Under the pieces are notes generated by a model, which was given only the letters and a program-made list of their open reading frames with translations, ran no database searches and was not told the origin of the DNA. From a virus, in the IMG/VR virus record IMGVR_UViG_3300045988_167206, positions 108,686 to 172,685 of that record: 64,000 nucleotides of DNA. One strand, written 5' to 3'. How positions within the stretch are numbered: the first letter of the stretch is position 1; each line of letters starts with the position of its first letter. Positions 12,912-57,013 of the stretch are shown here, piece by piece. The translations under genes were made by a program, and so were the position numbers.

Positions 12912-12935
12912 AACAACTCCTCCTTGTATTCGTAA

Positions 12936-13010
12936 TGGATATAGTAGGACTCGAACCTACAAAAGCCTGATCCTAAGTCAGGTGCGTCTGCCAAATTGCG
13001 CCATACATCC
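12936..13010 (-). tRNA. tRNA, anticodon UAG (Leu by anticodon), class I body with short variable loop
   Basis: Hand-folded cloverleaf. Acceptor GGATGTA/TATATCC, T arm GTAGG-TTCGAGT-CCTAC, anticodon arm CCTGA-CUUAGGA-TCAGG, 5-nt variable loop, A73. Confidence 0.8.
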
Positions 13011-13084
13011 AGAGAAGGACAGTAAAGACTGTCCTGTAAAGAAATGTATAATATAAGCAGCAACGCCACTCGTATTATTTAAAT

Positions 13085-15218: not shown

Positions 15219-16664
15219 TTATAATGCAACAACCATATCTTTAACAGAAGCGACTACTTTAAATGTTTTATCTTCTTTTGATATGGCATCTTTCAAATCT
15301 TTTTTTAAACTATTTTTTGCTACTTCAGATCCATGTACTAAAATCAATTTTTCTGTATTAATTTTAGATCCATATGTAATAAGTTCATTTCGATTTGCAT
15401 GACTTGAAAATGTTCCAAGCGATATACAATCTGCTTTATTTTCAACACCATCTCCACTGATCTTTATAATTTTGTTTTCCTTATAGTTTTTTATTCTATA
15501 AGACAAATAAGAGTTGTCGGATCCAGTGTATCCACTAAAAATAACCATACTATTTTCATCGCTGAGATATTCATGTAAATAAGATAAAATACGTCCGTTT
15601 GTACAAAATCCAGAACTACTTAATATAATTTTAGGCCGATGATCTTTTACAATTGCCAAAGAGTCTTCTTTTTCACGAATAAAATGAACTTTATTCCATC
15701 CTACAACTTTATTCCATAGTTTTAACTCTTCTTCAGATAAAAGAGTAGAGTATAAGTCACAAATATCACATGATAATATAGAATCAACTATAATATCGTA
15801 ATTAAATGAAATATCATGATAGATATTGTACAAATTAGTAAGAATTTCTTGAGTCCTACTAAAACTAAAGCATGGCATAATAACAGATCCACCACGTTCA
15901 GTTACGGTATCAATCGCAGTTTTTAAATGATCCAAATCGAATTTTCGAGTCTTTTTATTTATTCGTCCTGGTTCTCCATATGTAGATTCCATAATTGTAA
16001 TTTTGTTAAAATCTGTTGGAATTTCTGTATTATGAACATAATGATTTTTGGTATTTAAAGAACCAATATCAGAAGTGTATAAAATAGATTTTGAAACACC
16101 ATTTTGATCTCGAAGCGTAAGCTGAAGCTGTCTAGCTCCAACACAATGACTATTCTCATACCATTTAAAAGAAACAATATCGTCAAGAATATACTGTATA
16201 TGTAACTCATCATATTCAACAATATATTTCAAAGTATTCATAACATCATTTTCTTCATAGATAGGAGAGTAGTTTCGTTTATATTTAAATGATAAGGCGT
16301 TTGCTTCACTAAATAAAATAAAAGCACAGTTATAAAGTAAAGGCTTCATAAGTTGTGCAGTAGCGTGTGAAGCGATAATTTTTCCAGTAAATCCTTCTTT
16401 AACTAATCTTGGTAGCAACCCAATATGATCAACATGAGTATGGCCAACAAACACATAATCAATTTCAGAAGGCTTAAAAGGAAATTTGGCAGAGTTTATA
16501 TTATATGATTCAAGATAATTGTTATTTTGGTAAAGACCGCATTCCAATAAAATCTTTTTTCCATTAAACTTAATATAAATACAACTGCCGGTAACATCGT
16601 TGGCATTTTGTCCAATTAAATAAATGCCATCGTCTTTTTTCTTTTTGCTGATATCCAACACCAA
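15219..16664 (-). CDS. metallo-beta-lactamase fold beta-CASP nuclease (RNase J/CPSF-like)
   Basis: HxHxDH motif (VGHTHVDHIG). Beta-CASP-type FSSHANRNEL and LILVHGSE motifs near the C-terminus. Apparent TTG/GTG start. Confidence 0.8.
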   Translation of the reverse strand: MVLDISKKKKDDGIYLIGQNANDVTGSCIYIKFNGKKILLECGLYQNNNYLESYNINSAKFPFKPSEIDYVFVGHTHVDHIGLLPRLVKEGFTGKIIASHATAQLMKPLLYNCAFILFSEANALSFKYKRNYSPIYEENDVMNTLKYIVEYDELHIQYILDDIVSFKWYENSHCVGARQLQLTLRDQNGVSKSILYTSDIGSLNTKNHYVHNTEIPTDFNKITIMESTYGEPGRINKKTRKFDLDHLKTAIDTVTERGGSVIMPCFSFSRTQEILTNLYNIYHDISFNYDIIVDSILSCDICDLYSTLLSEEELKLWNKVVGWNKVHFIREKEDSLAIVKDHRPKIILSSSGFCTNGRILSYLHEYLSDENSMVIFSGYTGSDNSYLSYRIKNYKENKIIKISGDGVENKADCISLGTFSSHANRNELITYGSKINTEKLILVHGSEVAKNSLKKDLKDAISKEDKTFKVVASVKDMVVAL

Positions 16665-16943: not shown

Positions 16944-17026
16944 TGGGAAGTGATGGAGTTGAACCACCCGAGTCTTTCGACAACAGATTTACAGTCTGCC
17001 CCGCTACCCCTACGGTATAACTTCCC
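16944..17026 (-). tRNA. tRNA-Tyr (GUA)
   Basis: Acceptor GGGAAGT/ACTTCCC, anticodon loop CUGUAAA, long variable arm, T loop TTCAACT. Confidence 0.85.
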
Positions 17027-17174
17027 TTGTTTTCTTTACTTTTTCATCTTGGCTGAGGATTTGTGCCCTCCAACCAAAGATATAGTCTGTGTACTTTAGA
17101 CTGCCATTTACTTTACACTCTAAATGGTCAAAACGTAACCGAGGCTGCTGGCGCGACCAGTGCATGTCAGTTAA

Positions 17175-17246
17175 CACACCCTCAAGGACTCGAACCCTGT
17201 TCTACGGTTTTGGAGACCGTCATAATACCACATATACCAAAGGTGC
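17175..17246 (-). tRNA. tRNA-Trp (CCA)
   Basis: Anticodon arm ACGGT-CUCCAAA-ACCGT, T arm CAGGG-TTCGAGT-CCTTG, acceptor GCACCTT/AGGGTGT (G1-U72 wobble). Confidence 0.8.
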
Positions 17247-17255
17247 AAAAAAATA

Positions 17256-17337
17256 ACGCCGTGCACACGATTCGAACGTGCAAGTCCTTTCAGACCAACA
17301 GTTTTCAAGACTGCTCCCTCACCACCCGGACACACGG
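17256..17337 (-). tRNA. tRNA-Ser (UGA)
   Basis: Acceptor GCCGTGT/GCACGGC, anticodon loop CUUGAAA, long variable arm, T loop TTCGAAT. Confidence 0.85.
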
Positions 17338-17347
17338 CATAATAAAG

Positions 17348-17420
17348 CTGAAATAGAGACTTGAACTCTAAACCTGCTGATTACAAATCAGCTGCTCTGC
17401 CAATTGAGCTATTCCAGCAA
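17348..17420 (-). tRNA. tRNA-Thr (UGU)
   Basis: GCTGGAA-TA-GCTC-AATTGGCA-GAGC; anticodon arm GCTGA-UUUGUAA-TCAGC; T arm TAGAG-TTCAAGT-CTCTA. Confidence 0.9.
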
Positions 17421-17484
17421 AATCCGTCTTTCCGGATTGTCAGACCGAGATACCAGTCATTTACTAATTAAATTTTAAACTTGC

Positions 17485-17513
17485 TTGACAAAAATATCCA
17501 ATAATGGTATTAT
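17485..17513 (+). promoter_or_regulatory. sigma-70-like promoter (TTGACA-17 nt-TATTAT)
   Basis: Consensus -35 TTGACA at 17485-17490, 17-nt spacer, TATTAT at 17508-17513. Faces the opposite way to the surrounding tRNA genes. Confidence 0.65.
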
Positions 17514-17675
17514 CCCATTCGTTAGAGGTCGAGAATCCCAAAAGGATTCATAGGAAGATAGTGCAAACTGGACTCCGTGGTAAACCAAGCAATATACAAC
17601 GGTTATTATACGGCCGCCTTTATGGGCAGATTTTAGCTCATGTGCCTCCAATCGGTAGGAGAGGAGGTTTTTACT

Positions 17676-17756
17676 ATGAATGATTATATTACATATATTA
17701 TTCTAGGACTTGATGCACTCGTATGGGTGCTGAAGGTTATTAAAACATTTTGTTAA
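17676..17756 (+). CDS. 26-aa hydrophobic peptide MNDYITYIILGLDALVWVLKVIKTFC (type I toxin-like)
   Basis: ATG preceded by GGAGAGGAGG. An upstream CCTCC (17645-17649) can pair with the SD. Single predicted TM helix with a basic tail. Own promoter and terminator. Confidence 0.55.
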   Translation: MNDYITYIILGLDALVWVLKVIKTFC

Positions 17757-17816
17757 TTTCTTGTTGTTGAGCTTGGCGGGATAATAATTCCATTATTGGA
17801 TTAATCATAGTAGTAG

Positions 17817-17852
17817 AAGCTGCATCCTGCAGCTTCTTTCTTTGTGTTTTTT
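17817..17852 (+). terminator. rho-independent terminator
   Basis: GAAGCTGCA-tcc-TGCAGCTTC stem followed by TTTCTTTGTGTTTTTT. Confidence 0.8.
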
Positions 17853-17947
17853 GATATGCTCCCAATCTAAAAGACCTGAGGTCTCCCAGGAAGGATTTTC
17901 ACCTTCGAGTTCCCAGCATGGTGGGCGGTAACTGTTCATATCTTTAA

Positions 17948-18032
17948 CGCAAAGCAGAGTATTCGAAACTCAATCCAATAAAGGATCGCATGACTTAGCA
18001 GGTCAGCTCCGTGCCTCACGGATTTACTTTGC
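17948..18032 (-). tRNA. tRNA-Ser (GCU)
   Basis: Acceptor GCAAAGT/GCTTTGC, anticodon loop CUGCUAA, long variable arm (ATCC-TTTATT-GGAT), T loop TTCGAAT. Confidence 0.8.
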
Positions 18033-18100
18033 AATTTTAAAGGAGAGGGAGGATAAAACCTCCCCAGAAAAAAGAAAGAGGTAGTAACTATAACAAATCA

Positions 18101-18129
18101 ACAAAAAAATATTGAGTGTAAAACACTCA
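18101..18129 (-). terminator. rho-independent terminator inside the tRNA array
   Basis: On the minus strand, TGAGTGT-TTT-ACACTCA then ATATTTTTTTG, immediately after the 3' end of tRNA-Leu(UAA). Confidence 0.65.
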
Positions 18130-18215
18130 GTGCTATCTGTGGGACTCGAACCCACACTTCGTGTTTCAGAAACAGGATTTTAAGTCCTGTGCGCCTGCCA
18201 GTTACGCCAAGATAG
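18130..18215 (-). tRNA. tRNA-Leu (UAA)
   Basis: Acceptor GCTATCT/AGATAGC, anticodon arm CAGGA-CUUAAAA-TCCTG, long variable arm, T arm GTGGG-TTCGAGT-CCCAC, A73. Confidence 0.9.
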
Positions 18216-18226
18216 CATTTATTTAT

Positions 18227-18299
18227 AAGCACTATATGAGAGTCGAACTCATATCATCTGATTGGAAGTCAGATATCATGTTCCGTTAAACCAATAGTG
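18227..18299 (-). tRNA. tRNA-Gly (UCC)
   Basis: Acceptor GCACTAT/ATAGTGC, anticodon arm TCTGA-CUUCCAA-TCAGA, T arm ATGAG-TTCGACT-CTCAT. Confidence 0.85.
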
Positions 18300-18454
18300 C
18301 ATCGGCAGGGAAGCGGAATTCTGCCTTCTAATTCTCTTATTACCTACTAAATTATAAAGAGCCATGGTTTTATAAAATTTCGGATCCTCTGTAGAAAGAG
18401 GATAACATTCTTTATAATTACTCATTCTGAGATTATACTTAGTACTTCCCCAAA

Positions 18455-18525
18455 TAGCGGAGGCTGGATTTGAACCAACGTCTCTAGAGCATGAATCTAG
18501 CAAGGAACCGCTCCTCTACTCCGCG
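18455..18525 (-). tRNA. tRNA with CAU anticodon (Met or Ile2-type), C1xU72 mismatch
   Basis: Anticodon arm CTAGA-UUCAUGC-TCTAG, T arm GTTGG-TTCAAAT-CCAGC, acceptor CGCGGAG/CTCCGCT with position 1:72 unpaired. 71 nt. Confidence 0.7.
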
Positions 18526-18704
18526 TTATTCGTATATTTATGGTAGAACTATATCTATGTCGTCTTACAACATACAGCATGTTCACTTATTGCCTACTAA
18601 AGATTTCGTACTTAAACCCGATCAGGAATATAATAAAATCACTCGGTTAACACATGCAATTATATTCCGTGTACCTATCTACACCAAACTTTCAGGCACC
18701 ATAG

Positions 18705-18778
18705 TTGGAATGACGGGATTTGAACCCACAACGTCTTGGTCCCAAACCAAGCGGACTGCCAAGTTGTCCTACATTCCA
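18705..18778 (-). tRNA. tRNA-Pro (UGG)
   Basis: Acceptor TGGAATG/CATTCCA (U1-A72), anticodon arm CTTGG-UUUGGGA-CCAAG, T loop TTCAAAT. Confidence 0.85.
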
Positions 18779-18786
18779 AAATTAAG

Positions 18787-18859
18787 CTCTCCCAGCAGGA
18801 CTCGAACCTGCGACACAACGGTTAACGGCCGTTTGCTCTACCAACTGAGCTATAAGAGA
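18787..18859 (-). tRNA. tRNA-Asn (GUU) with C at position 33
   Basis: TCTCTTA-TA-GCTC-AGTTGGTA-GAGC; anticodon arm AACGG-CCGUUAA-CCGTT; T arm GCAGG-TTCGAGT-CCTGC. Confidence 0.8.
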
Positions 18860-19877: not shown

Positions 19878-22745
19878 TTAGAGCAACTTTTTTTTTGATA
19901 TTCTGCAGTTTTTCCGGAAATTTTGCAAAAATGCATTTTTGTCCATTCTATAAAGAAGATTTAAAAGATTGCGAGTGTATCTTGAATAATCTTTCTTTTT
20001 TCCTCTTGTACTTGTATTCAAAGCAATTTCAATTAAACGGCTCATTGTTTTCGGATTAGAAATTTTCATTTTTCGTAAATCAGTTAAAATTTCTTCAAAT
20101 CTTTCTGTATAAGCCATGATATCATCGTCAGACATATCATCTTTACTCAATTCATCTAATTCTTTGGCATAATTAATAATTTTTTCCATTTGTCTGTGAT
20201 TAGCCTTTCCAGGTACATCAACGATAAATTCTTTTATAGGAATAGCATCTTTTTGTGATGCCGGTGCAATCTCATTTAATATTCTTTCAAGAAAATTCAT
20301 AGGACATATATAATAGGAAGAAACTCTGTTATAAAGTTTGTTTTTCTGTTCCATAACAATCTCTCTATCAATTTCTTTACCATTTTTGGTATAAGCAATT
20401 TTTCGTGTAAACTTCATAAATTCCGGGAAATCTCGTTTTATTTTTTTCACATTTCCATCTTTATCAGTAATCTCTTCAACCTGGCACATACATGGCAACC
20501 CCTTTATTCGTTTAATTTCTTCTATAGCGTCAACTTCATACTCTCGTTTACATCCATCAATAATAACCTGGGCTAATACAGAAAGAATCACAAAATTATC
20601 GTATAATTCTTTGGATGGTTCGGTCCAATAGTATGTCATAGCAAGCTGTGCTAAGTTACTAGATTCTCCGATACCAATACGTGATTTTGCAAATTTGTTA
20701 TCCATACGAGCATATTCCTTCATTGTATTCTTATAGGTAAGACCACTTTCTTTAAGTTTGTTCACTATAGTAGGATATTTTTCGTATGCGGCTTTCGCAC
20801 TTTTTACCATTACTGGATTATTGGTCACAAAGAAAAAATCGGAATCAAAATCACATCCATTGGCACGATCCTGAATATCTGTTTCGATACAGTTCACAAA
20901 CATAATGTTGTTACTTATCTTAAAATAACGAGATAATTCAGGACTATAATGATTATGTAAATAGCAAATGTTATTTGGACTATTATGTGGATTTCTGATA
21001 CCACATAGATATTCGCCATCATCAAAACGAGTAGTATAACACTGAATTGTTCCAGGCTCCGGGCGAAGAGTGGGATCTGACTCCGGATCTTCACCAACTG
21101 CTTTTAATAAAAGTGCATATGGATTACCAAAAATCGTAAGATTGTCGCCGTCTATAGTAATTTTACCGTTACGAAGTCTATTTACATAGTTACGAAGAAT
21201 CTGCCTTTTCTCGTATCTAAACCAAGTACTATCACCAAATTCATAGTCCTGGTCATATAGATCTGCTAACATCTCATAATGGTTTACTATAGTAGCATTT
21301 TTTCTCAGGAACCGCTCGAAGATATCATTTTCCAGCTTCATATCTTCAACATAATCAACACTGGTTCTCGCCAATTCACGTACTTCAGACATTCCACAGC
21401 ATAATAATTCACTATCTTCTTCATAAGATGGGAGAGTATTGATCATCTGATAGCTCATCTGCTGAACGCTGCCTAATTTACTTGGATGATCAGTTTTTAC
21501 CACGCCCCAGTAGCTTCCGTCTGCATCAACACGATCACACCAATATTTATAGGCCGCTTCAGGTGTTTTTCCCATCAAATCCATGAATTTCTTCCATTTA
21601 ATGGCATTATCAGTAGTGATCATCTTAATATCTTTGAGTTTGTGTGATACTCCGAACATATCTTTAACTTCATATGTTTCGTAGTCTAAATCATGTTCCT
21701 CGCACCAGTCCTTAAAAAATAGCTGCAATTTACTTTTGATTGCACATGCCTTAAAGAAATGTTGCCTGAGCAACGCCATACCATTGATCCATTTAGGTAA
21801 AATAGAGATATCTGCAAGAGCAAGTCCATCATGTAATGTATTTTTTACCTCTGTCTCTTCATCAGAAACAACACATTTTTTCTTTGTTACCGGCACCATT
21901 TTATATCTCCGGCTGAATTTAGGAGTAACACCATCTTTTAAAAATTTCTTCTCTCGAATAGCTTTTTGTTTTGCTGCTTCAGTAGCTTCTTCATCAAGAA
22001 CCTTTTCGTATGCTATATATTCTTCAGCTTTTACTATTTTAGCCATAGTCTTAAAAAAGCTATCAGTGTCCTTTAGAATCAAAATATCTCTAACAGGGCA
22101 ATAAAACTTTCCTACTATGGTAGAAGTAGTAAGAGGAGCATAAGCAGACATCTCTACAATTTTTGCATTATCAATAGGCATTTTCTTTCCGAGTCCCATT
22201 GTAAGCCAATCATAAGACTTCTTATATAATTTGCTATTGATAAACATTACCTGGCCGATCTTAGCTTTAGAGGAGTTACGATACAGCATTTTATAATTAA
22301 TAGTCTGGCTTTTTTCACCATCTTTTTTAGTGTATTTCGATTTATATTCTATGTTAACTCCTTGATCATAGAACAACTCACGTATTTCATCCTTAGATAA
22401 TTTCCAATAATTATCTTTATTTTTTTCTACATTATCAAATATCTGCTGGATTTTTTTCTTTGATTCCGCTGTAAGAGAAGCATCATGTTTAAAACCTTTA
22501 AATTGTTTACGTAAATGATCAAGTTCTTCTTCGTAACTTCTGCTACCAAAATCAAAATCCAAACAGATAATATCTCTAGTACTCGTATCATTCCAAACAT
22601 TAAGGCCATTTTCTCTAATCCAATCATAAAACAGACTATTGCTAAACATTGCTTCAGTCGAATCATAATGATCACGAACTCCCTGATTACAACCAAATAG
22701 AGTACCGGCTTTAATATTCCGTATTTTTAAACCAAATTCAGACAA
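19878..22745 (-). CDS. putative single-subunit two-barrel RNA polymerase (YonO / cellular-RdRP-like)
   Basis: 955 aa. The segment GIRNPHNSPNNICYL...IMFVNCIETDIQDRANGCDFDSDFFFVTNNP resembles the RdRP/QDE-1/YonO catalytic barrel signature (R-x-P-x-x-H-P...D-x-D-G/S-D). Confidence 0.6.
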   Translation of the reverse strand: MSEFGLKIRNIKAGTLFGCNQGVRDHYDSTEAMFSNSLFYDWIRENGLNVWNDTSTRDIICLDFDFGSRSYEEELDHLRKQFKGFKHDASLTAESKKKIQQIFDNVEKNKDNYWKLSKDEIRELFYDQGVNIEYKSKYTKKDGEKSQTINYKMLYRNSSKAKIGQVMFINSKLYKKSYDWLTMGLGKKMPIDNAKIVEMSAYAPLTTSTIVGKFYCPVRDILILKDTDSFFKTMAKIVKAEEYIAYEKVLDEEATEAAKQKAIREKKFLKDGVTPKFSRRYKMVPVTKKKCVVSDEETEVKNTLHDGLALADISILPKWINGMALLRQHFFKACAIKSKLQLFFKDWCEEHDLDYETYEVKDMFGVSHKLKDIKMITTDNAIKWKKFMDLMGKTPEAAYKYWCDRVDADGSYWGVVKTDHPSKLGSVQQMSYQMINTLPSYEEDSELLCCGMSEVRELARTSVDYVEDMKLENDIFERFLRKNATIVNHYEMLADLYDQDYEFGDSTWFRYEKRQILRNYVNRLRNGKITIDGDNLTIFGNPYALLLKAVGEDPESDPTLRPEPGTIQCYTTRFDDGEYLCGIRNPHNSPNNICYLHNHYSPELSRYFKISNNIMFVNCIETDIQDRANGCDFDSDFFFVTNNPVMVKSAKAAYEKYPTIVNKLKESGLTYKNTMKEYARMDNKFAKSRIGIGESSNLAQLAMTYYWTEPSKELYDNFVILSVLAQVIIDGCKREYEVDAIEEIKRIKGLPCMCQVEEITDKDGNVKKIKRDFPEFMKFTRKIAYTKNGKEIDREIVMEQKNKLYNRVSSYYICPMNFLERILNEIAPASQKDAIPIKEFIVDVPGKANHRQMEKIINYAKELDELSKDDMSDDDIMAYTERFEEILTDLRKMKISNPKTMSRLIEIALNTSTRGKKKDYSRYTRNLLNLLYRMDKNAFLQNFRKNCRISKKKLL

Positions 22746-24487
22746 TAATGATCAGACCTCCTTGCTAATGTTTCATTTGATCTAGCAAGATCGTTAGAGG
22801 ATATTATTTCGTATGTAGGAAGATGGTGACTGTCTCGTGGTAATATAATAGGATTGGACACAGAATTTAAATCAAGAGTTTCCGCTCTATGACCTATTGA
22901 ATTTGCTTCACTTGGATAAGCATATGCATGACTACTTATATGGGCAGCAGAAGTAATAGTTCCATTTTCAGATGTAGGTAATGGTCTAATTGAATCAATA
23001 TCAAGGTGATGCTCTCCAAGAATGAAATTCATACTCCCAATAGATAAATTTCCACTAAGATATTCAATTTTATTATTTGATTTTTCTTTTTGTAGTGTTC
23101 TCAATTTTTTCAATTTTACATTTAACTCATTATTGGCCTTATTTAACGCCTGGTTAATAGATTTCCGACTATAATAAGTCTTTTTATGCATAAGTTGGGT
23201 TTTCAACCTAGTAATTTCAGTTTTTAAATATTTTATTTCTTTTTTTAATTGATCATCTTCATGCAACTTATTATATCTTCCAATATAATACTCATTAAGC
23301 GCGGGAGAAAATAATTTTGTCAAATCATTCCAAGAAGCAAACTCGATTTCTTCAATACTAACCGATTTTGCATAATCAATAATATTCTTAACAAATTCTA
23401 AAGTAAGAAGAAAAGTTTCATATTTTAATGTACTTTTAAACATTCTGAATTCAATGGTATCCGGATGCTGTAAATTCAGCGCAGCCTTCTTACCTTCATC
23501 TGAATATTTTCCAAATAATGTGATAGCGGTATCATCTTTTCCTCGATCACCAACAAATCTACTATAATCTGTATGCCGTCTTCCAATAACACAAATTTCA
23601 TCATTAAATTTCTCAATGATATATAGAATCTTTGAAATTACAAGCTCCTGTTGTAATTTAGTTTTACCTAGGTAAGATCTGTTTGCATGAATATGTAATC
23701 CGGCATTACTACAGTCATGTCCTTTATAACCTTGTTCATCAAGATATTTAAACATTTCTTTATAATTCATTTTGGTCTGATGGAATTTAAGACTGCATGG
23801 CATTGTATCAAGTTCGATTTGTACAGTCCCATCATGTGTACTATAAATATATTTCTCTTCATCAGAATCTGAAGTATTCATGATCTGAATACATTTTTTT
23901 ACAACATCCTGCTTAATAATTTGATCTATTTCTGGAAGATTTCCTGCAACCTCAATTTCTGCACCAAGTAGAAGAGTAGTAGATGGATCTTCATCTTCAC
24001 AGAAATATCTTAAATATTCAGGTTTATAGTCATATGAATGAATATAATATTTTATTCCTGTATTAGAAACTCTGCGTTGAGTCTCTAATCTTCTTATATT
24101 GTTATCTCGATTAGTAGAAAGTCTACCGCTATACCAATTAAATATATCGTTTGATGAATTAAACGGTATTAATCCATGTGAACCAAGATCATCTATATAT
24201 TCGTCACTATAATACATACAACAGGGATCGAAATAAAACCTGTTGCTATAATTATCTGTAAATTCAATTAATGTATCTTTCACTAATTTACAAAAATCCA
24301 CATAATTAAAATTATAAGTATACCATCTATGATTATCTCGTATATGTTCACACATTATTCTGAGTGTTGATTGGCTATTAATATTTATTTGTACATCAAT
24401 ATCAGTCACCAAATTTCCATCTATAGTAAGTGGATCCTGCAGACTTATAATATGTCCATCAAGTTCCATATCTGGTAGTAATCTCAT
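22727..24487 (-). CDS. amidoligase-like (glutamine-synthetase-fold COOH-NH2 ligase) protein with C-terminal coiled coil
   Basis: LLLGAEIEVAG, STHDGTVQIELDTMPC, NAGLHIHANR and DTIEFRMFKSTL occur in the order expected for the Amidoligase_2 family. C-terminal K/E-rich helix. Confidence 0.65.
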   Translation of the reverse strand: MRLLPDMELDGHIISLQDPLTIDGNLVTDIDVQININSQSTLRIMCEHIRDNHRWYTYNFNYVDFCKLVKDTLIEFTDNYSNRFYFDPCCMYYSDEYIDDLGSHGLIPFNSSNDIFNWYSGRLSTNRDNNIRRLETQRRVSNTGIKYYIHSYDYKPEYLRYFCEDEDPSTTLLLGAEIEVAGNLPEIDQIIKQDVVKKCIQIMNTSDSDEEKYIYSTHDGTVQIELDTMPCSLKFHQTKMNYKEMFKYLDEQGYKGHDCSNAGLHIHANRSYLGKTKLQQELVISKILYIIEKFNDEICVIGRRHTDYSRFVGDRGKDDTAITLFGKYSDEGKKAALNLQHPDTIEFRMFKSTLKYETFLLTLEFVKNIIDYAKSVSIEEIEFASWNDLTKLFSPALNEYYIGRYNKLHEDDQLKKEIKYLKTEITRLKTQLMHKKTYYSRKSINQALNKANNELNVKLKKLRTLQKEKSNNKIEYLSGNLSIGSMNFILGEHHLDIDSIRPLPTSENGTITSAAHISSHAYAYPSEANSIGHRAETLDLNSVSNPIILPRDSHHLPTYEIISSNDLARSNETLARRSDHYCLNLV

Positions 24488-25202: not shown

Positions 25203-26099
25203 CTAAACAAATACTAATTCGTTAATATAATCTCTGCCTTTGCCTTTAAATACCGGAATATTATTATCAATGGTCCAATAGGATCGTTGTGTTTCACATC
25301 TAATTTCTCCAATTCTTTTGTTATCATCTTTAACAGGTTTCCATCCTTCATGATTTTCATAAGTTTTAATACAACAGAATCCGCGTTGTTTGCCAATTTT
25401 AAAATCATTATCAAAATCAATATTTTTCTGCTCATGTAACATTTCTTTAATGGCAGCAGTACTTTTATTCTGTAATTCCTTTTGTGTAAAATTTGCCTGG
25501 CCAACCATCTGAATAGAATTACGAATACAATCTTGCTGCCGCCAGAAAAAATAATTTGCGATCTCATCTTTAGAGAGATTAAAACACCTTGAATCAAAAC
25601 CTCTGTATTTAAATTCAAGCGCATTCCATAAACGTTGCATATATTCAATATCGGATTTTTCTTTATCTGTTAAATCTTTATAAGTTCCACCCATATCATA
25701 ATCCGGAATGTTTCTATATCCATATCTTTCAATATTTTCCTTAAACATTTCTTCAAAAAATGTTGTAGCAAGAGCAGCAGAAGTGCTGACTATTTTCTGA
25801 ATTCTATTATCAAACCAAGGCTGAGTATCAAAATTTTTATAATCAATAAGAAGTAATGAAATTTCATCAGACTGAGTATATGCAAGAACACAATTCTGCA
25901 CATTCTGACACATATATAATGCAGTCTGTTGCATAGTATCAATTAAAATATCATCAAATGGTTTCCTGAATCCTCTTGTAAAACTATGGAAGCTGCGGCC
26001 ATCAAGTCTAATAATTACCGGTAATCTTCGGATTAACTTTTGATCCGTAATCTTTTCGTAGTCTTTCATTCTAATATCTAAATCTGTATATGCTGGCAT
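25203..26099 (-). CDS. Thg1-like protein (tRNA-His guanylyltransferase family 3'-5' nucleotidyltransferase)
   Basis: VIIRLDGRSFHSFTRGFRKPFD, LAYTQSDEISLLL, FDSRCF...YFFWRQQDCIRNSI and NIDFDNDFKIGKQRG align motif-for-motif with eukaryotic Thg1 (VVVRLDGRNFHRF..KPND, YGQSDEYSFVF, FDGRVV..YLSWRQADCHINNL). Confidence 0.9.
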   Translation of the reverse strand: MPAYTDLDIRMKDYEKITDQKLIRRLPVIIRLDGRSFHSFTRGFRKPFDDILIDTMQQTALYMCQNVQNCVLAYTQSDEISLLLIDYKNFDTQPWFDNRIQKIVSTSAALATTFFEEMFKENIERYGYRNIPDYDMGGTYKDLTDKEKSDIEYMQRLWNALEFKYRGFDSRCFNLSKDEIANYFFWRQQDCIRNSIQMVGQANFTQKELQNKSTAAIKEMLHEQKNIDFDNDFKIGKQRGFCCIKTYENHEGWKPVKDDNKRIGEIRCETQRSYWTIDNNIPVFKGKGRDYINELVFV

Positions 26100-28494: not shown

Positions 28495-28528
28495 CAAATT
28501 TTACATTATAACCGGTACACGATGAGTA
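28495..28528 (+). promoter_or_regulatory. bipartite box TTACAT-N16-TGAGTATAT, overlapping an inverted 15-mer copy
   Basis: TTACAT at 28501-28506 and TGAGTA at 28523-28528. Same architecture as the boxes after hairpins U1-U4. 28495-28507 is also the reverse complement of AATGTAAAATTTG. Confidence 0.4.
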
Positions 28529-28570
28529 TATCACCAGCGAAAGGTAGTGTCAAGAGCTTTGAACGAAAAT

Positions 28571-55747: not shown

Positions 55748-57013
55748 ATGAAAGATTATTTATTAGAGAAATTCTTTGAATCAGACCGATGGGAGAATGC
55801 TATTGAAACAGGAGTTATTAAGGGAATTGATAAATCAGAATTAAGAAAGCTTTGTAGTCCAGAGTATAGATTAACATTATTGAATGCAATCGTTACTAAT
55901 AATTACGAGATAGCTCCTCCACATCAGGCATTGATTCCAAAAGATAATGGAGAATTTAGAACAGTTTATGTTAATGAAGGAATGGACAGAGTGTTCTTAT
56001 CTATTGTAAATGATATGTTATTTGAACTTGATCATGACTCTATTCATCCAGCATGTAAAAGTTATCAGAAAGGAATTGGCTGCGGAAAAGTAGTTCAGGA
56101 AGCTGTTAGAAATATAAAACATATTCAAAGACAAGATATTGGATTTAAGGCAGACTTAAGTAAATACTTTGATTCGGTTCCGATTAAGTTTATCGAAAAA
56201 GAATTTAAGCGGATCGAAGAAAGATTTGGAAGATCAAAAATAATTGATGTATTAAGGAAATATTATCATGCAGATTTATGTTTTAATCCAGACGGAAATC
56301 TTATCGAACATTATCAAAGTCTTAAGCAGGGTTGTGCCGTTGCAAGTTATCTGGCTGATTGTGTGTTGTTTCACATTGATAAAAGATTAAATATCATGTG
56401 CGATGGATATTATGTTAGATATTCTGATGATATTCTATTTATTGGTGATGATTATGCATCGGCAATGGCTGCGCTTAAAGACGAATTAGAGAAAATGCAA
56501 ATGAAATTAAATCCAAAAAAGGTAGAATTGCTTGATAAAGATCATTGGTTCAAGTTTTTAGGATTCATGATTAAAGGTGATCAGATCAGTTTATCCAAGA
56601 GTAGAGTCAAAGACTTCCAAAAAGAAATAGAAGCAAGAACAATTAAAAAGAGAGATACAACTAAAACAAAAGCTATAAATAGTGTGAATAGATATCTTTA
56701 CAAAGGTGATGGAAAGTATTCCTGGGCAACTTCAGTATTGCCGATAATTACCGTGCAGAAAGATATTGATACACTGAATGAATTTGTTATGGATTGTATT
56801 AGGGCGGCAGAAACAGGAAAGAAAAAAGTAGGTGGTTTAGGATGTGTTGTAGATAAGGATAATTATACGATTCTTAGAGGAACCGGAAAAAATGTAAAAG
56901 CAAATAAAATTAAAACAGAAAAATATATTGAAGGATATAAGAGTATACGATGTATGCAGAATGCATTGAATTACAGCAGGCCGTTGTATGAAACATTAGT
57001 GAGGGAGATGTGA
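55748..57013 (+). CDS. reverse transcriptase (stand-alone, group-II-intron-like palm/fingers plus thumb-like C-terminus)
   Basis: RT motifs in order: IPKDNGEFRTV (1), SYQKGIG (2), FKADLSKYFDSVP (3), SLKQGCAVASYLADCVL (4), YVRYSDDILFIG (5, YxDD), LNPKKVELL (6), FKFLGFMI (7). Confidence 0.9.
   Translation: MKDYLLEKFFESDRWENAIETGVIKGIDKSELRKLCSPEYRLTLLNAIVTNNYEIAPPHQALIPKDNGEFRTVYVNEGMDRVFLSIVNDMLFELDHDSIHPACKSYQKGIGCGKVVQEAVRNIKHIQRQDIGFKADLSKYFDSVPIKFIEKEFKRIEERFGRSKIIDVLRKYYHADLCFNPDGNLIEHYQSLKQGCAVASYLADCVLFHIDKRLNIMCDGYYVRYSDDILFIGDDYASAMAALKDELEKMQMKLNPKKVELLDKDHWFKFLGFMIKGDQISLSKSRVKDFQKEIEARTIKKRDTTKTKAINSVNRYLYKGDGKYSWATSVLPIITVQKDIDTLNEFVMDCIRAAETGKKKVGGLGCVVDKDNYTILRGTGKNVKANKIKTEKYIEGYKSIRCMQNALNYSRPLYETLVREM

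Follow-up and report, generated by a model that had tools for sequence, protein, structure and literature searches.

Why would a bacteriophage encode an enzyme that builds on the 5' ends of tRNAs, and which tRNA would be its client? The question is raised by a gene for a 298-amino-acid protein in 64,000 nucleotides of viral DNA (IMG/VR record IMGVR_UViG_3300045988_167206, positions 108,686 to 172,685; this whole stretch is hereafter the window), which a sequence-only reading took for a Thg1-like 3'-5' nucleotidyltransferase next to a tRNA array. The in vitro chemistry of bacterial and archaeal Thg1-like proteins (TLPs) is well described, yet no biological substrate is settled for them in bacteria. 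A mark of the TLP clade is 3'-5' addition that strictly follows Watson-Crick pairing, with a preference for 5'-truncated tRNA. All bacterial and archaeal TLPs tested in vitro add G-1 opposite C73 to tRNA-His lacking G-1, and repair 5'-truncated tRNAs (PMC6471195). Bacterial G-1 is otherwise genome-encoded and kept by RNase P, and G-1 addition by bacterial TLPs looks redundant (PMC6471195); according to references cited in the same paper, it is the G-1:C73 pair that directs the unusual -1 cleavage by RNase P in bacteria.

Viral homologues of Thg1 figured in a phylogeny published in 2011 (PMC3245924), gp143 of phage Bc431v3 was flagged in 2013 as a possible modifier of phage or host tRNAs (PMC3601020), and a 2021 survey of jumbo phages placed Thg1 under RNA repair (PMC7824862). 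Our literature search found no paper in which a role for a phage TLP is established by experiment, nor one linking phage TLPs with phage tRNA-His genes that lack G-1. The statement in the sequence-only reading that phage-borne TLPs have no described role is thus correct as regards experiment, but it passes over the routine annotation of homologues and the published predictions that they modify tRNAs or take part in RNA repair.

Identity and surroundings of the phage protein

The open reading frame matches the Pfam Thg1 family (PF04446) with E=4.3e-30 and 104.7 bits (curated cutoff 29.2), and PHROG 4717, 'tRNA-His guanylyltransferase', with E=1.1e-76; no model matched it in an NCBIfam scan. The Thg1 C-terminal domain stays under its Pfam cutoff (16.9 vs 26.3), and the C-terminal part of the protein aligns with residues 127-236 of the TLP of Bacillus thuringiensis (BtTLP) at 5.9e-18. 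BtTLP (4kgk) is also the strongest match among PDB sequences (E=4.3e-52, both domains covered), followed at a distance by human THG1 (5e-12), Methanosarcina TLP (6.7e-12), Candida Thg1 (9e-10) and yeast Thg1 (1e-5). In the N-terminal region the alignment to BtTLP has no gaps and an offset of 3, so that residues with a function assigned in that enzyme (PMC3701042) can be mapped directly onto the phage protein: D30, D75 and E76 correspond to D33, D78 and E79, E12 to E15, R28 to R31, S74 to S77 and R131 to R171, and K46 likewise matches a functional residue. The three carboxylates for two-metal catalysis (D33, D78, E79) are therefore all present. Across an alignment with 15 relatives there is no variation at D33 or D78, and E15, R31, E79 and R171 are conserved at 90% or above.

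Eukaryotic Thg1 carries a eukaryote-specific motif, HINNLYN, whose histidine (H154) stacks on the anticodon (PMC6471195). In our alignment the corresponding position of the phage protein (CIRNSI...QMV, against CHINNLYNT in human THG1) is occupied by CIRNSI, so that the histidine which stacks on G36 in the eukaryotic type is absent. This replacement identifies the protein as a TLP as opposed to a tRNA-His-specific Thg1. The motif-based identification made earlier is thus upheld by the profile search, one of the checks proposed for it, and by the closer match to BtTLP than to eukaryotic Thg1: the frame is intact, and all of the listed motifs are found (Table 1, with KPFD at residues 46-49). Sequence comparison confirms the 298-residue protein as a Thg1-family member of the bacterial TLP type with an intact active site.

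The predicted structure points the same way. An AF2 model (pLDDT 77, pTM 0.78) finds its best Foldseek matches in the PDB in the two BtTLP entries, 4kgm and 4kgk (E about 1e-16, TM about 0.8), all of the top 32 PDB matches are Thg1 or TLP structures, and the modelled protein has the polymerase-palm-like Thg1 fold. Two regions stand out against BtTLP. A helical insertion (modelled helices at residues 95-130 and 145-163) is present yet variable in close relatives, and a beta-hairpin (modelled strands at 241-258 and 261-278) is elongated, with a length that is highly variable across the 15-relative alignment. In MaTLP the equivalent hairpin touches the T-arm of the tRNA (PMC6471195).

Table 1. 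Features of the window bearing on the role of the TLP (positions count from the first letter of the window)
Feature	Position	Strand	Basis
beta-CASP metallo-beta-lactamase RNase (TTHA0252/CPSF73-like), directly downstream of tRNA array	15219..16664	(-)	
tRNA array: Asn, Pro, Met, Gly, Leu(UAA), Thr, Ser, Trp, Tyr	16944..18859	(-)	ARAGORN, Rfam
Ser-Trp spacer, exact site of tRNA-His(GUG) without G-1 in sister strains L005 and L006	17247..17256	(-)	BLAST against L005
tRNA-Met(CAU), C1xU72, initiator-type unpaired 1:72	18455..18525	(-)	
Amidoligase-like protein, 586 aa, synteny anchor	22727..24487	(-)	Pfam Amidoligase_2, marginal
TLP gene, 298 aa, ATG start	25203..26099	(-)	Pfam, PHROG, PDB alignments, AF2/Foldseek
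Elongated beta-hairpin (residues 241-278)	25266..25379	(-)	modelled strands
FDSR (168-171; R171 = BtTLP R131) to WRQQDCIRN (186-194)	25518..25598	(-)	alignments to 4kgk and human THG1
Clade-specific helical insertion relative to BtTLP (residues about 123-166)	25602..25733	(-)	gap in 4kgk alignment
QSDE (76-79): S77, D78, E79 (= BtTLP S74, D75, E76)	25863..25874	(-)	4kgk alignment; roles from PMC3701042
RLDGRSFHSF (31-40): R31 and metal-binding D33 (= BtTLP R28, D30)	25980..26009	(-)	4kgk alignment; roles from PMC3701042
Best sigma-70-like promoter match, TTGACA-17-TATACT with TG, at head of TLP-containing leftward block	28525..28553	(-)	consensus match alone

The window encodes a large terminase, a portal protein and a ClpP-like prohead protease, and is thus of phage origin. 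Contigs with the same proteins carry SPbeta-type structural families (YonB, YonD, YonG, YonJ, YomU, YomW) and a tape-measure protein, and on matching contigs, genes for tyrosine recombinases and for an NAD-dependent DNA ligase follow just past the position where the window ends. A protein identical to the TLP (100%) occurs in many gut-metagenome contigs of roughly 120-310 kb, and a human gut sample is the source of a contig that shares a different protein with the window; the phage is SPbeta-like and belongs to the human gut. The phages in GenBank include no close relative, a nucleotide search of them with the region having given no match, and exact peptide patterns retrieved no close relatives from GTDB genomes. 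An alignment query of GTDB placed relatives of the TLP clade mainly in Lachnospiraceae and other Clostridia, and one related prophage (L455) is integrated in Ruminococcus sp. AM36-2AA.

The TLP gene belongs to a leftward block that begins at a divergent region near 28.5 kb, where GC skew changes sign. From the TLP the block runs through three small ORFs, the amidoligase-like protein, a 955-aa protein, a 112-aa ORF and HU to the tRNA array and the beta-CASP RNase, the last of these kept at 75-100% identity in 44 relatives; the 955-aa protein and the neighbouring small ORFs gave no informative domain or structure matches. That the TLP lies 'next to' the array holds in the sense that the two share a strand and that the gene order between them is syntenic in more than 40 relatives, but the TLP is 6.3 kb upstream of the array, with seven ORFs in between.

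Acceptor stems of the phage tRNAs

The candidate substrates first suggested for the enzyme were the phage's own tRNAs, several of which were said to have unusual 1:72 positions. Both ARAGORN and Rfam detect 10 tRNAs in the window, and on inspection their acceptor stems prove less unusual than this. There is one 1:72 mismatch, the C1xU72 of tRNA-Met(CAU), which is real, and one G1.U72 wobble, in tRNA-Trp, whereas tRNA-Pro and tRNA-Asn have ordinary U1-A72 pairs; a mismatch anywhere in positions 1-3 is seen in a single tRNA out of the ten. Nor does a broader comparison, in which 191 distinct tRNAs of TLP-linked loci are set against 1005 phage-baseline tRNAs, reveal an excess of mismatches: the respective rates are 4.2% and 4.3% at 1:72, 0% and 1.0% at 2:71, and 1.0% and 0.9% at 3:70. 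The mismatches at 1:72 are moreover concentrated in tRNA-Met(CAU), which contributes seven of the eight in TLP-linked loci and 18 of the 43 in the baseline.

In relatives of the phage the 1:72 mismatch of tRNA-Met is retained with varied bases (UxU, AxA, CxU), and this persistence through different bases suggests that the unpaired state is itself selected. An unpaired 1:72 position is an established hallmark of the bacterial initiator tRNA, and this initiator-type feature is usual among phage tRNA-Met genes. Repair by the TLP would abolish this feature, so the C1xU72 mismatch is not evidence for a TLP substrate. It is consequently highly improbable that the TLP edits phage tRNAs with encoded 5' mismatches in the manner of mitochondrial 5' editing, although the mismatch exists and although DdiTLP3 does carry out the repair step of such editing (PMC6471195). 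An editing system would be expected to come with multiple mismatched tRNAs, and with one in ten in the window, and TLP-linked rates equal to baseline, we reject it here; the tRNAs with odd 1:72 positions are not supported as candidate substrates.

A tRNA-His without encoded G-1 in the phage family

Neither ARAGORN nor Rfam finds a tRNA-His in the window. This had been noted before and is true, but it turns out to be misleading, as strains with the identical TLP do carry such a gene. We compared array order in six contigs whose TLP protein is exactly identical. Four of them have the order of the window (Thr-Ser-Trp), while two, L005 and L006, have Ser-His-Trp. In L005 the tRNA-His(GUG) occupies 73 nt (L005:19225-19297), starting 2 bases past the discriminator of tRNA-Ser, and reads T|GTGACTA...TAGTCAC|C, that is, U-1, a G1-C72 pair and C73, with CCA not encoded. 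ARAGORN and the Rfam tRNA model are concordant on this register. The alternative of taking the first G as G-1 was rejected, as neither U8 nor the 2-nt connector nor the T stem is preserved by it, and Rfam places this G at position 1. When the window array is aligned to L005 by BLAST, the flanks align and L005:19225-19297 has no counterpart, the surrounding module being a diverged allele. Extending the window phage by about 16 kb of flank from matching contigs disclosed no tRNA-His in the approximately 80 kb thus inspected, with some 40 kb of the genome outside this scope.

How general the association is was examined across the family, using 49 relatives fetched via the amidoligase-like neighbour together with the assembly contigs, L010/L011 and L455. 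A syntenic TLP together with a U-1/C73 tRNA-His is present at 37 loci, which comprise 29 distinct TLP sequences that are 45%, 70% or 100% identical to that of the window. A TLP and a visible array with no tRNA-His characterise nine loci (the window, L001-L004, L010, L011, L334 and L455). At four loci with a U-1/C73 tRNA-His the sequence ends before the TLP site, and these carry no information on the TLP. At three (L327, L329, L333) the TLP site is visible and empty, and a TLP profile search of these loci found none. Among loci with both sites visible, every G-1-less tRNA-His (37/37) is accompanied by a TLP, and none was seen at the three visible-but-empty TLP sites. The TLP-less L327 and L329 have no tRNA-His; L333, the sole TLP-less relative that has one, carries a different gene with an encoded G-1 (attatg|GTGTCAT...ATGATAC|C). 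The T at -1 is common to the 37 loci, where it occurs in three distinct upstream contexts, and there are compensatory changes in the anticodon stem.

The chance that the three TLP-less loci would all fall among the 12 without a G-1-less gene is C(12,3)/C(49,3)=0.012, a value uncorrected for phylogeny, and the association is not phylogenetically independent because the 37 loci fall into no more than two or three deep clades. A G-1-less tRNA-His gene with C73 in the same genome as the TLP, as TLP-dependent maturation of tRNA-His would require, is found in L005, L006 and 37 related loci, and is missing from the window. The co-occurrence of a TLP with a G-1-less tRNA-His in a family of SPbeta-like gut phages is a new and directly testable observation.

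What, then, of the relatives that have a TLP and no tRNA-His? In the His-less lineage formed by L010, L011 and L455, dN/dS of the TLP is 0.14-0.19 at dS of 0.4-0.6, which equals the value in His-bearing relatives (0.15), so that either the gene is kept in the absence of a tRNA-His client or such a client is encoded in another part of those genomes. The missing client might also be taken to mean that the TLP acts on RNA other than tRNA, in 5' completion or capping of another phage or host RNA, or that the window copy is a non-functional remnant; non-tRNA substrates have been proposed for DdiTLP4 (PMC6471195). We find both versions improbable, given that the frame is intact and 100% identical in many gut metagenomes, with all catalytic residues conserved, and that a hairpin of the kind contacting the T-arm is retained, as is synteny with the tRNA array across the family.

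The association does not extend to phages at large. In five further sets of TLP-linked loci plus Bc431v3, examined as a test of a general rule, the tRNA-His near the TLP has a canonical G-1:C73 in 6 of 12 lineages, against 54 of 89 in the phage baseline (p=0.54), and a rule equating a phage TLP with a tRNA-His lacking encoded G-1 is thus unsupported. Canonical genes occur in the L213 group, L481, L396/L110, L546, L559 and L564; the non-canonical ones are U-1/A73 (L056), G-1/A73 (Fnu1 and L529), U-1/U73 (L248) and C-1/A73 (Bc431v3). The 89 phage tRNA-His genes of the baseline were sampled from IMG/VR by pattern, on loci of at most 15 kb within which no TLP is seen, and only three baseline contigs overlap TLP-linked loci. 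In this sample 35 of the 89 genes are without a canonical encoded G-1:C73, 14 of them being U-1/C73, which raises the question of how such tRNAs get charged.

A tRNA gene is seldom found close to TLPs of the Bacillus-phage type. In Mycobacterium phage Porcelain a polynucleotide kinase lies three genes away from the TLP and an RNA ligase at a distance of 12 kb, and in Fusobacterium phage Fnu1 the TLP is 14 kb from an 'RNA ligase/metallophosphoesterase'. Such RNA-repair neighbourhoods, like the placing of Thg1 in the jumbo-phage survey, favour the view that the TLP serves general repair of tRNA 5' ends, as counter-defence or quality control, on host or phage tRNAs shortened by nucleases, with the link to tRNA-His being secondary. 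On that account the tRNA-His could have lost its encoded G-1 because the TLP was already there. The purifying selection on the TLP of His-less relatives, the conserved beta-CASP RNase that adjoins the array, and the in vitro preference of TLPs for 5'-truncated tRNAs over full-length tRNA-His (PMC6471195) are in agreement with it. Nevertheless, the window ORFs that were scanned (Pfam, PHROGs, NCBIfam) include no recognisable polynucleotide kinase, RNA ligase or CCA-adding enzyme, so the pairing of kinase and ligase that makes up a phage RNA-repair cassette is not seen among them, and repair by itself leaves unexplained why every G-1-less tRNA-His in the family accompanies a TLP. We therefore consider repair as the primary role somewhat unlikely. 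That it is host tRNAs hit by a defence nuclease that are repaired, as the sequence-only reading also suggested, is possible, with no support for it inside the window, and a defence nuclease that acts by shortening tRNAs at the 5' end is not known to us.

A proposed role and its relation to known systems

The reading we prefer starts from homology, which lets us predict with high confidence that the TLP activates a tRNA 5'-monophosphate, probably using ATP or GTP, and then extends the tRNA in the 3'-5' direction by a nucleotide complementary to the base that faces it on the 3' acceptor strand. The natural client in this phage family would most likely be the phage's own tRNA-His. U-1 and C73 do not form a pair, and cleavage by RNase P is accordingly expected at +1, yielding a tRNA-His that lacks G-1. 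Addition of a G opposite C73 by the TLP would supply G-1, the identity element required by bacterial HisRS, and host HisRS could then charge the phage tRNA. The window strain carries the alternative module (Thr-Ser-Trp in place of Ser-His-Trp), by which the client has apparently been swapped out in the roughly 80 kb inspected. Its enzyme may be a recently orphaned copy, or, more likely in view of the purifying selection in other His-less relatives, may also complete or repair 5'-shortened tRNAs in general. Taken as a whole, this reading (an active, templated TLP that adds G-1 to the tRNA-His of the family and in the window is either orphaned or engaged in general 5' completion) is in our judgement probable, if only just. 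A stronger version may be put forward tentatively, as plausible though short of probable: the TLP and the G-1-less tRNA-His would form a two-part, phage-autonomous pathway for tRNA-His maturation, in which the tRNA becomes chargeable only after the phage enzyme has added G-1, and selection on the TLP in strains where the tRNA has been swapped would then reveal a second, general role in 5' repair.

Taken alone, the window is an ordinary finding, a member of an already annotated gene family for which editing of the phage's own tRNAs is unsupported. It is the G-1-less tRNA-His of the sister strains that gives the enzyme a concrete and testable job. A phage lineage in which such a tRNA-His is seen only alongside a TLP offers a natural and genetically simple test system in vivo, consisting of one enzyme and one tRNA, with a cultivable relative in Ruminococcus sp. 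AM36-2AA (L455). If the stronger version holds, the family would provide the first natural context for a non-redundant TLP of the bacterial type.

How does the phage protein compare with systems already described? The annotated phage Thg1 homologues (PHROG 4717, Bc431v3 gp143, and those of Fnu1 and of jumbo phages) belong to the same family as the window TLP; 161 GenBank phage records contain a homologue, the best at 43% identity (Fnu1/FNU3). The kind of gene is thus already known in phages, and the window copy is a further member. The tRNA-His genes of two of these phages differ from the U-1/C73 type considered here, however, with C-1, C1-G72 and A73 in Bc431v3 and G-1, A73 and an encoded CCA in Fnu1. 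Eukaryotic Thg1 shares its fold and two-metal active site with the phage TLP, but adds G-1 opposite A73 without a template and reads the GUG anticodon via HINNLYN/H154, a motif that the phage protein does not have. Mitochondrial 5' editing of the DdiTLP3 type likewise employs a TLP that fills in 5' nucleotides with the 3' strand as template, but needs many tRNAs mismatched in the first three pairs, a situation not seen in the window.

The closest structural counterpart is BtTLP (4KGK/4KGM), in which HINNLYN is absent too and which has the same carboxylates and the same NTP-binding network (E12/R28/R131, equivalent to E15/R31/R171). Identity between the two is about 40% over the aligned parts, and the present protein is phage-encoded and 53 aa longer, owing to the helical insertion of about 44 aa after residue 122 and a beta-hairpin about 20 aa longer. 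As regards function, the job proposed for the family resembles that of DdiTLP2 of Dictyostelium and of archaeal TLPs, namely templated formation of G-1:C73 after ordinary cleavage by RNase P (PMC6471195). Those enzymes act in mitochondria or archaea, whereas here both TLP and tRNA-His, of which the window strain has only the enzyme, would come from a phage and would work in a bacterial host that presumably encodes G-1 in its own tRNA-His gene.

Encoded 5' ends and acceptor stems of phage tRNA-His genes

The tRNA-His genes of phages are frequently exceptions to the bacterial rule, under which the gene encodes the extra 5' G (G-1) together with C73. Of 89 such phage genes in a pattern-based sample (IMG/VR loci L090-L209), just 54 carry this canonical combination; U-1 with C73 is found in 14, and A73 or U73 in about 20. 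A further feature lies within the acceptor stem itself, where tandem U4xU69 and U5xU68 mismatches are present in 6 of the 15 distinct tRNA-His genes linked to a Thg1-like protein (TLP) gene. The six carriers, all near TLP genes in other phages or prophages (loci L213, L214, L269, L433, L248 and L546), bear the mismatches on three different stem sequences. The baseline frequency among phage tRNA-His genes is 2/86, and the other TLP-linked tRNAs, about 390 in number, all lack the tandem pair. For the enrichment in TLP-linked tRNA-His, p = 9e-5, or 0.012 once lineages are collapsed. The tandem mismatches are absent from the window family.

The tRNA array and its surroundings

Features of the window in and around the tRNA array, and the reverse transcriptase
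Feature	Position in window	Strand	Size	Remarks
tRNA Leu-UAG	12935-13011	-		U at -1 able to pair with N73
beta-CASP metallo-beta-lactamase RNase	15219-16664	-	481 aa	directly downstream of tRNA array
tRNA-Trp	17174-17247	-		U at -1 able to pair with N73
tRNA-Ser	17256-17339	-		U at -1 able to pair with N73
tRNA-like element	17947-18033	-		conserved; inside 700-nt array gap
Reverse transcriptase	55748-57013	+	421 aa	Pfam RVT_1, 2e-21; PHROG polymerase/RT

The potential U-1:N73 pair explains why ARAGORN draws 8-bp acceptor stems for the Leu-UAG, Trp and Ser tRNAs; Rfam sets the ends of all three at the standard 7-bp register. The element in the array gap has an acceptor-like stem of 7-9 bp, the anticodon GCU, a long variable arm and a T-arm whose loop reads UUCGAAU; its D-arm, a 6-bp stem closed by a loop of 3 nt, is aberrant. 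ARAGORN detects the element in permissive mode only, as tRNA-Ser(GCU). Its folding z-score is -2.6, and in distant relatives it is 84% identical, as against about 75% in its flanks.

Strains with identical TLPs (the window and the phage loci L003, L005 and L006) differ in their arrays, with Thr-Ser-Trp versus Ser-His-Trp modules, and in some of them an insertion of about 830 bp separates tRNA-Asn from tRNA-Pro. Eleven relatives, L292 and L302 among them, carry an odd tRNA between tRNA-Ser and tRNA-His. Its anticodon loop has 6 or 8 nt around UUAU. ARAGORN calls this tRNA '?(Stop|Ile)', and it may be a suppressor or a tRNA with a four-base anticodon.

The top PDB match of the beta-CASP protein is the T. 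thermophilus RNase TTHA0252 (5e-37), followed by Cas14 and CPSF73/IntS11. It is kept at 75-100% identity in 44 relatives, a conservation far above that of the TLP, and may be a phage nuclease that processes tRNA precursors or mRNA. The reverse transcriptase is sited within the rightward gene block of the window.

A TLP subclade with altered NTP-site residues

In phages that share 76-84% identity in the genes beside it, the TLP itself is only 45% identical, a disparity that suggests allele replacement at the TLP locus. In one subclade (loci L010, L011, L455, L293, L330 and P0060 of relatives), with TLP genes at the same syntenic position, the changes E15K, R31Q and R171C co-occur (numbering of the window TLP). 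Despite these changes the subclade is under purifying selection, with dN/dS of about 0.15. In the Bacillus thuringiensis TLP the corresponding residues, E12, R28 and R131, form a salt-bridge network for the incoming NTP (PMC3701042).
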